A DNA stretch of 64,000 nt from an uncultured Bacilli bacterium (GTDB taxonomy: Bacteria > Bacillota_I > Bacilli_A > RF39 > UBA660): NCBI GenBank assembly GCA_934101575.1, contig CAKORJ010000001.1, positions 402,994 through 466,993 on the forward strand, given 5' to 3'. Under the pieces are notes generated by a model. It searched no databases. It was not told the DNA's origin and saw only the letters and a program-made list of their open reading frames with translations. The position numbers were made by a program, and so were the translations under genes. Position 1 is the first letter of the stretch, and the number at the start of each line of letters is the position of its first letter. Positions 63,221-63,631 of the stretch are shown here, in pieces.

Positions 63221-63631
63221 CTATAAATTTTCTAAATATTTTCTTATATCTAAAAACAAAGAGCTATTATTTCTTATTTTAGATAACATTAAATCATTTA
63301 ATTTTGATATACATTCATTAAAATTAATCTTTTCTAAAGATTTATCTAAATAAAAGCTATATTTATTATATATACAATCATAAATAATAAAATCATTAGT
63401 ACCATTTATAACAATAGAACTAATACTATTATTTTTCAAGTACATCAACACCTTATTTAAGTTTTCCTTAGGAAATCCAATAGTATACTTAGAACTAATC
63501 TTATAATTAAAAAAATAATTAATTATAAAAGCATCATAATCAAATGCTCTATAAAACTTACCATATTTTATCAGAATAACATGCTCATTATACTTTTCCT
63601 TTAATTCTTTACTATATTCAGTTATAGTCAT
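63221..63631 (-). CDS. hypothetical protein located between DGR target/VR and TR (possible DGR accessory gene)
   Basis: 136 aa ORF with AGGAGG RBS 6 nt upstream of the ATG. No recognisable motif. Confidence 0.4.
   Translation of the reverse strand: MTITEYSKELKEKYNEHVILIKYGKFYRAFDYDAFIINYFFNYKISSKYTIGFPKENLNKVLMYLKNNSISSIVINGTNDFIIYDCIYNKYSFYLDKSLEKINFNECISKLNDLMLSKIRNNSSLFLDIRKYLENL

Follow-up and report, generated by a model that had tools for sequence, protein, structure and literature searches.

A 64,000-nt stretch of DNA from an uncultured Bacilli bacterium (contig CAKORJ010000001.1 of assembly GCA_934101575.1; hereafter "the window") ends in a diversity-generating retroelement (DGR), and between the variable repeat (VR) and the template repeat (TR) of that element lies an open reading frame (ORF) of 136 amino acids, here called msl, which is the subject of this paper. 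The product of the ORF is domain I of MutS, the domain that recognizes mismatches, standing alone and followed by a C-terminal pair of helices. We are confident that the locus is a DGR of the Msl class with an orthodox DGR RNA, an assignment made by comparison with the published descriptions of MSL (MutS-like) proteins. What, then, is a domain of a repair protein doing inside an element whose business is mutation? Our tentative answer is that Msl, as a minimal MutS domain I encoded by a retroelement, shields the heteroduplex of complementary DNA (cDNA) and VR from mismatch repair; the account as a whole, that of a chromosomal Msl-class DGR operating as proposed below, we consider probable.

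A full DGR cassette fills the final 2.5 kb of the window, except for the bulk of the target gene, which the end of the window cuts off. Read along the minus strand, its parts are VR, msl, TR, avd and reverse transcriptase (RT), in that order, and the reading frames of avd and RT overlap by 20 nt (coordinates are collected in Table 1). The RT is matched by Pfam RVT_1 (E 1.6e-20) and by the PHROG reverse transcriptase profile (E 1.3e-93), and its translation carries the motifs IGNYSSQ and YMDD; the signature of DGR-type RTs is [ILV]GxxxSQ in domain 4 together with YxDD. The avd product is found by PHROG "Avd protein of DGR" (E 2.9e-13), by NCBIfam DivGenRetAVD (E 1.2e-11, 44.8 bits, under that model's 80-bit cut-off) and by Pfam bAvd (E 1e-9, 39.3 bits, 0.7 under the cut-off). 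HRDC gave no hits in a scan of four ORFs that ran from msl to the gene following the RT. An initial annotation of this DNA had pointed to the extra ORF and to its strong ribosome-binding site (RBS), and in both it was right: the ORF is there, on the minus strand, with AGGAGG at 63643-63638, 6 nt ahead of its ATG.

That annotation also held that the ORF was without any accessory motif, and here the evidence goes the other way. Pfam MutS_I (PF01624), a model of domain I of MutS, MSH6 and MSH3, matches Msl with E 6.9e-7 and 29.9 bits, above the gathering cut-off of 20.6, the match spanning residues 8-62 only. An AlphaFold2 model of the single chain, made from an alignment of 14 homologues, has a predicted local distance difference test (pLDDT) score of 90.3 and consists of a beta/alpha core (residues 3-84) and two C-terminal helices. 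All 50 hits listed by Foldseek against the PDB are MutS or MSH3 (MutSbeta) chains at probability 1.0, the best with E 5.7e-5, and the MutS/MSH domain I chains superpose with a root-mean-square deviation of 1.5-4 Å across 70-109 columns. Searching from the family outward gives the same answer, for a profile built from 48 diverse members and run against the PDB finds MSH6 (E 1.1e-4) and MutS, and each of the 48, taken individually, matches MutS_I. In other words, profile search and structure prediction both identify the ORF as a known domain, MutS_I, with the fold of MutS domain I. A scan against NCBIfam returned just a spurious CbrR match and MutS at E 0.28, and no specific family model.

The residues that the family has kept are informative. 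F26, D33 and Y91 are invariant in its alignment, and K11, G24, Y27, Y43, F53, P54 and L65 are almost so. The family motif G-x-F-Y aligns to G-K-F-Y-E of MSH6—that is, to the Phe-X-Glu motif that binds mismatches—and the position of the Glu is taken by R28 in the Msl of the window and is variable across the family. Msl is not a canonical MutS: its 136 amino acids hold MutS_I only, and the Glu of Phe-X-Glu is gone.

How large is this family, and where do its genes live? A word-indexed protein search found 15 close homologues of Msl, and an exhaustive profile search found at least 751 cluster representatives at E<=1e-3 (clusters defined at 50% identity), 143 of them at E<=1e-10. Nearly all representatives are of 120-150 amino acids and are matched end to end. 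When relatives were surveyed (related loci carry labels of the form L001), the ORF adjoined avd and RT in every one examined, to about 30% identity. In all close relatives with a readable contig the genes run target-msl-(TR)-avd-RT; this is so at protein identities as low as 47% and also at another chromosomal site (beside rimP-nusA-infB in L001, beside rlmN-PP2C-pknB in the window). Three distant clades, at about 30% identity, likewise carry the gene in avd/RT cassettes with msl at a different position: VR-TR-msl-avd-RT in L015, where msl and avd overlap; repeats-avd-RT-msl in L018; and msl-avd-like-x-RT in L021. In two representatives (P0080 and P0058) an RT domain and, C-terminal to it, a MutS_I domain form one natural fusion protein. 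The L018 locus, of the avd-RT-msl clade, also has three copies of a repeat of about 200 nt upstream of avd (77-1160), with no long ORF called there, an arrangement of target and TR that is unusual.

The initial annotation had called the architecture unusual. TR does precede avd, which departs from the avd-TR-RT order of BPP-1; as an oddity the claim does not survive, for this order is the rule in the lineage, and TR lies upstream of avd in those relatives where it was located, irrespective of the position of msl.

One might suppose that msl contributes nothing to the DGR and merely rides along in it, or that it is what remains of a decaying mutS. Wu et al. note that DGR components sometimes have ORFs nested between them (PMC5758913), and the domain is a short one, with a Pfam match over less than half of the protein. 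We give this idea next to no credence: the protein is conserved over its full length, C-terminal helices included, in clusters that number in the hundreds and agree in size; it has invariant core residues, its own strong RBS and fusions to RT; and it is always found in DGR cassettes, though the position of msl within them shifts. Neither the PHROGs nor a tblastn search of 50,697 phage records gave a match to Msl, so that nothing points to carriage of this clade by phages. A close-alignment scan of species-representative genomes had as its sole hit a metagenome-assembled genome from a Hadza gut, labeled "uncultured Bacilli bacterium."

Proteins of this kind have been described before. Wu et al. 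(Nucleic Acids Research 2017, PMC5758913) distinguished four classes of DGR accessory gene, avd, HRDC, MSL and CH1, of which avd is present in about three quarters of DGRs and MSL in about 4% (16 of 372). Their MSL genes, which make up "Architecture D," stand always beside avd and never with HRDC and encode proteins of 112-283 amino acids; the same authors recorded a MutS_I motif at the C-terminus of three RTs. The name Msl was given in three Bacteroides DGRs, Bfr, Bth and Bun (Macadangdang et al., bioRxiv 10.1101/2024.11.15.621889), and the link between MSL and MutS is restated in reviews and in a 2026 engineering preprint. The initial annotation saw in the ORF a possible novel accessory factor, and a strong form of that idea—a factor unrelated to those known, in an architecture never seen—could appeal to a family that no source names in the protein collection searched, to the want of a specific NCBIfam model and to an order of TR and avd unlike that of BPP-1. 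It is refuted by a MutS_I match over the Pfam cut-off, by the MutS domain I fold and by the earlier publication of a class with just these properties, and we leave it a negligible probability. What stands is that msl is a DGR accessory gene, kept beside avd and RT; what falls is its novelty. The locus is a further example of a type described in 2017-18, and its order is normal for its lineage.

Over six loci whose Msl proteins share 47-97% identity, the interval between msl and avd is 86% identical, a degree of conservation that marks it as more constrained than the genes on either side. Folding with RNAalifold and of the single sequence predicts a 12-bp duplex across the flanks of the TR, made of a strand directly upstream of the TR and a strand in the spacer between TR and avd. 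The stem-loop of a 16-nt palindrome begins at the final base of the spacer strand of this duplex, and AAAUAUAUA, with As, follows the palindrome hairpin in all loci. The palindrome had been noticed in the initial annotation, which was correct in calling it perfect and 16 nt long and placed it a little off, at about 62957-62975. In a window of 27.6% GC, perfect palindromes of at least 16 nt are not rarer than chance (5 observed, 2.4 +/- 1.6 in first-order Markov simulations); the significance of this one comes not from its mere existence but from its conservation, from compensatory changes between loci at three positions of its stem (alignment columns 263-278) and from its context in the RNA.

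That context is a familiar one. In the cryo-electron microscopy structure of the BPP-1 ribonucleoprotein (Handa et al., 10.1101/2023.10.23.563531), a segment upstream of the TR pairs with the spacer to form the "cPRT Stop," which positions priming and terminates cDNA synthesis; its spacer strand runs into a short stem-loop and then into unpaired adenosines, and a tetraloop stem-loop that binds Avd follows right after the TR. Such elements were predicted in 207 of 278 Avd-type DGRs in the same work. The predicted layout in the window matches this description element by element, and by analogy the palindrome is the stem-loop of a "cPRT Stop"-like element. A second comparison is with the motifs RT-1 to RT-19, found near RT genes, among which RT-10 was placed in the TR-brt spacer of BPP-1 (Weinberg et al. 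2017, PMC5737381). Rfam RT-14 (RF02921) aligns over its full length at 63027-62902 with 35.9 bits (E 0.0026 in a search of 501 nt) and at the same position in five further loci with 33.6-40.1 bits, all of these scores lying under the 48.1 bits that Rfam sets for gathering; in the alignment the palindrome falls on the model's small hairpin. The spacer is at best a divergent, AT-rich relative of RT-14.

The two repeats form a TR/VR pair of the kind expected in a DGR. A 96-nt repeat (63140-63045 against 63999-63904) is 84% identical and runs to the window end, and the pattern of the TR core occurs at these two sites only, with 0 expected. In the relative L001, whose target gene is complete, the TR/VR pair measures 138 nt; the limits of the TR used here are set by alignment to that pair, where the initial annotation gave 63180-63050, and the repeat itself is real. 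The TR reads RGGNYNNGTNAGAFNSGSNNGNANSNNSSR and is rich in AAC codons. Its 15 mismatches with the VR in 96 nt comprise 11 at TR adenines, two internal ones at other bases (TR AGT, VR ATC) and two at the 3' end, so that inside the repeat, with the 3' end excluded, 11/13 fall at TR adenines and 2/13 do not. By inspection of the printed sequences, relatives such as L028 also have their VR-TR differences at adenines. Where the relatives' TRs read AAC AAC AAC, the TR of the window reads GGC AGT AAC and its VR GGC ATC GAC, which suggests a mutation in the TR of the window itself, later than the most recent retrohoming.

The target lies mostly beyond the window, and here the relatives help. Four independent assemblies that share this Msl (the window, L023, L031 and L032) have an identical VR, and in L031 and L032, whose loci are identical, the full target gene encodes a protein of 1232 amino acids with an N-terminal hydrophobic segment, the VR encoding its final 35 or so residues; the protein is probably surface-exposed. 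A weak, sub-threshold FGE-sulfatase match (E 1.9e-4, 21.6 bits where 23.3 are required) was seen in the L001 target homologue only. L001 has two tandem target genes (2727-5345 and 5783-7750, of 872 and 655 amino acids), each with its own VR (5235 and 7643), and the window may likewise have further targets past its end. L022 is a mixture: its chromosomal context and its msl-TR-avd-RT are of the window type, and its VR and promoter are identical to the L001 type, with many differences at bases other than A between that VR and its own TR. Two causes would account for it: DGR alleles that recombined, or an assembly that is chimeric.

How might such a cassette work? One promoter upstream of msl would probably drive msl, the DGR RNA, avd and RT, and the DGR RNA would be made up of a 5' hairpin, the TR and the structured spacer. 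If established DGR biology holds here, RT and Avd would copy the TR RNA, primed from the spacer, into adenine-mutagenized cDNA, and that cDNA would replace the VR at the C-terminus of the 1232-residue target. Msl would travel with the RT and its cDNA and would bind the densely mismatched cDNA:VR heteroduplex through the Phe wedge that it has retained; so placed, it could keep the MutS and MutL of the host from restoring the parental sequence. This anti-repair role fits two observations: deletion of the host mutS in Bacteroides raises retrohoming 5-10-fold, in an all-or-nothing pattern (10.1101/2024.11.15.621889), and fusions of MutS_I to RT exist.

The fusions can also be read in another way. 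Together with the tight operon linkage, as in the msl/avd overlap of L015, they suggest physical association with the RT complex, and Msl might be a partner of RT and Avd that recognizes distorted nucleic acid and promotes priming, strand invasion or the handing over of cDNA. Its substrate could then be the A:N mispairs of the RNA:cDNA hybrid, the VR heteroduplex or the hairpin after the VR. That the Phe wedge is invariant and the Glu is not would suit such a role, as would the conservation of a hairpin directly after the VR. Set against it are the numbers given above, from which it appears that the core reaction can do without Msl (avd in some three quarters of DGRs, MSL in very few), and the reconstitution of BPP-1 cDNA synthesis from bRT-Avd and RNA alone. 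We think this role for Msl rather unlikely, while granting that no evidence here separates synthesis or integration from anti-repair.

Several points weigh against the account that we prefer, in which an Msl-class DGR protects its heteroduplex from repair. Domain I of E. coli MutS binds DNA jointly with the clamp, a domain that Msl lacks. Loss of the Glu of Phe-X-Glu may have altered classical mismatch recognition, to judge by the sequence. Both points count against a role in synthesis or integration as well. No experiments on any Msl protein were found in the literature searched, and a scan of the ten largest other ORFs in the window found neither mutS nor mutL. To these must be added the predicted 12-bp duplex, which is invariant and hence without support from covariation, the RT-14 scores below threshold and the assignment of the class from descriptions. 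Finally, a VR that does not vary in four assemblies, along with the two differences at bases other than A, makes the current activity of this copy only putative.

Between the VR and msl lie three hairpins and a putative promoter. The hairpin directly after the VR is found in six of seven aligned relatives and is invariant, so that it offers no covariation; BPP-1 and Legionella DGRs require a hairpin after the initiation of mutagenic homing (IMH) site (PMC5758913). The second, terminator-like, is predicted to form 17 pairs, some of which show compensatory changes from locus to locus, and was missed by a terminator scan because it is too AT-rich. The third, flagged as a 16-pair stem, has compensatory changes in its stem (CG/UA, AU/GC) in seven loci and keeps its loop; several Logan contigs break within this hairpin. 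The hexamers of the promoter are conserved in most related loci, two of which have TTAACA. Between -35 and -10 most clades have 21 nt, a length that survives interruptions of the GT repeat (L005, L024-27), whereas L011 has 20 nt and L001, L014 and L022 have 13 nt; a sigma-70 scan missed the promoter because the spacing falls outside 16-18 nt, and 21 nt is longer than a standard sigma-70 promoter allows. TGTG-T-TATATT can also be read as an extended -10.

It is possible that the (GT)n tract acts as a slippage-prone, Z-DNA-forming or supercoiling-sensitive control, or that it is none of these. The combined proposal—that Msl is an anti-mismatch-repair factor and that the conserved tract may be a slippage- or supercoiling-sensitive switch of DGR expression—is one that we offer with reserve, as a possibility that falls short of being probable. 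Phase variation of the tract, which would predict differences among near-identical strains, is not supported, since the tracts are identical in the window, L023, L031 and L032 and the length of 21 nt is kept despite interruptions, although other clades do have the variants of 13 and 20 nt. Contigs that begin about 120-130 nt upstream of msl raised the idea of an invertible or variable element there; an assembly artefact is likelier because three of these contigs are Logan contigs that start inside a conserved inverted repeat.

The same region invites the thought that Msl is a DNA-binding regulator of its own cassette, acting, for example, on an upstream hairpin or on the (GT)n promoter region. 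Conserved structured elements and an odd 21-nt GT tract do stand directly upstream of msl, and Msl, with an isoelectric point (pI) of 8.9, is mildly basic. In other clades, however, msl follows the RT or the TR and has different sequence upstream, a Pfam scan of Msl found no helix-turn-helix or other regulator domain, and the RT fusions favor a role in the enzymatic complex; we regard regulation by Msl as improbable.

Table 1. Features of the DGR cassette, in the order in which the minus strand is read (window positions)
Feature	Position	Strand	Remarks
Target gene, 3' end with VR	64000-63892	minus	stop codon 63894-63892; VR copy of TR core 63999-63904
Hairpin AACACC-GTAA-GGTGTT	63901-63886	minus	directly after VR; target stop codon in loop
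Terminator-like hairpin GTCTTATAAAATTAC...GTAATTTTATAAGAT with T run	63869-63829	minus	downstream of target gene
Hairpin with loop AGUUUAAUACU	63775-63739	minus	between target-gene terminator and msl promoter
Putative promoter of msl-TR-avd-RT	63687-63655	minus	TTGACA 63687-63682, T(GT)10 63681-63661, TATATT 63660-63655
msl	63631-63221	minus	ORF of 136 aa, between VR and TR
5' hairpin GUAUCAAU-UUAU-AUUGAUAU	63220-63201	minus	covaries (UA/CG, UA/GU)
Upstream duplex strand AGGGAUAAAACU	63200-63189	minus	invariant in 6 loci; predicted to close off TR
TR	~63185-63048	minus	~138 nt
TR-avd spacer	63047-62884	minus	164 nt
Tetraloop hairpin AUUGUU-UAAG-GACAAU	~63019-63004	minus	shortly downstream of TR
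Spacer duplex strand AGUUUUAUUCCU	62982-62971	minus	predicted 12-bp partner of 63200-63189
Palindrome TAGTTCATATGAACTA	62971-62956	minus	perfect, 16 nt; 6-bp stem and AUAU loop
Long terminator-like hairpin	62944-62902	minus	followed by U run, ahead of avd RBS
avd	62883-62548	minus	111 aa, pI 9.75
RT	62567-61551	minus	338 aa

Elsewhere the window has the content of an ordinary chromosome, with DnaE, PolA, PcrA, PBP, RecD2 and PknB, and some type IV secretion genes. The latter, at 19715-27548 and 33406-37328, are type IV secretion/conjugation genes (a VirD4/TraG-like coupling protein, a TraG P-loop protein and a TrbL-like protein), and the same two regions encode two large proteins (591 and 683 amino acids) with N-terminal prepilin-type methylation motifs. 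Adjoining the DGR is a PD-(D/E)XK gene of the Rpn family ("recombination-promoting nuclease/putative transposase"), at 60434-61399 in the window, at 375-1259 in L001 and also in L024 and L025; it stands beside the cassette in several distinct chromosomal contexts and may have some connection with the cassette's mobility. The start of this gene is overlapped by TACTAAATGAATTCATTTAGTA (61384-61405), a 22-nt palindrome that is perfect.

What has been gained? The question of the extra ORF is mostly closed, since it is the described Msl accessory gene in an order normal for its lineage. Msl itself emerges as a large and uniform family, which no source in the protein collection searched has named, with its invariant residues now defined—Phe wedge kept, Glu lost—and with RT-Msl fusions documented. 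The locus is also a compact, AT-rich DGR whose RNA, as predicted from sequence, has all the structurally defined elements of the BPP-1 RNA, the palindrome being its putative "cPRT Stop" stem-loop. If the anti-repair role is true, it would be the first function assigned to the fourth class of DGR accessory gene, and a natural local anti-repair factor this small would be of practical use in DGR engineering, because host MutS limits DGR mutagenesis to the 5-10-fold extent seen in Bacteroides and because DGR engineering in E. coli disables mismatch repair.

It remains to set the locus beside the systems it resembles. With domain I of MutS, MSH6 and MSH3, Msl shares the fold, the G-x-F-Y motif with its mismatch-wedging Phe and a G-[FIV]-P motif; unlike MutS, it has no connector, lever, clamp, ATPase or dimerization domain, only domain I and two helices, and ATP-dependent signaling to mismatch repair is therefore not possible for it. 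With the MSL/Msl class it shares a small standalone protein within the published range of sizes, its kinship with the domain by which MutS recognizes mismatches, its encoding inside a DGR cassette in which avd is present and HRDC was not found, and a pI that is about neutral to mildly basic; it differs from the published examples in its host, an uncultured low-GC gut member of the Bacilli, and may differ from them in the order target-msl-TR-avd-RT. From RT-14 the spacer is set apart by its sub-threshold scores, and it agrees with that model in having all 144 model positions aligned in six loci, in lying between TR and avd on the strand of the RT and in the single-stranded motifs UUUAUUCCU, UAAG, UUAGUA and GAA. 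The RNA of BPP-1 differs in that its upstream strand lies inside avd, where ours follows msl, and its spacer lies ahead of the RT, where ours lies ahead of avd; the stems in the window are AT-rich and are known from sequence and covariation prediction alone. Yet the parts are the same in both—a duplex of about 12 bp (here predicted), an adjoining stem-loop followed by As and a tetraloop stem-loop downstream of the TR.

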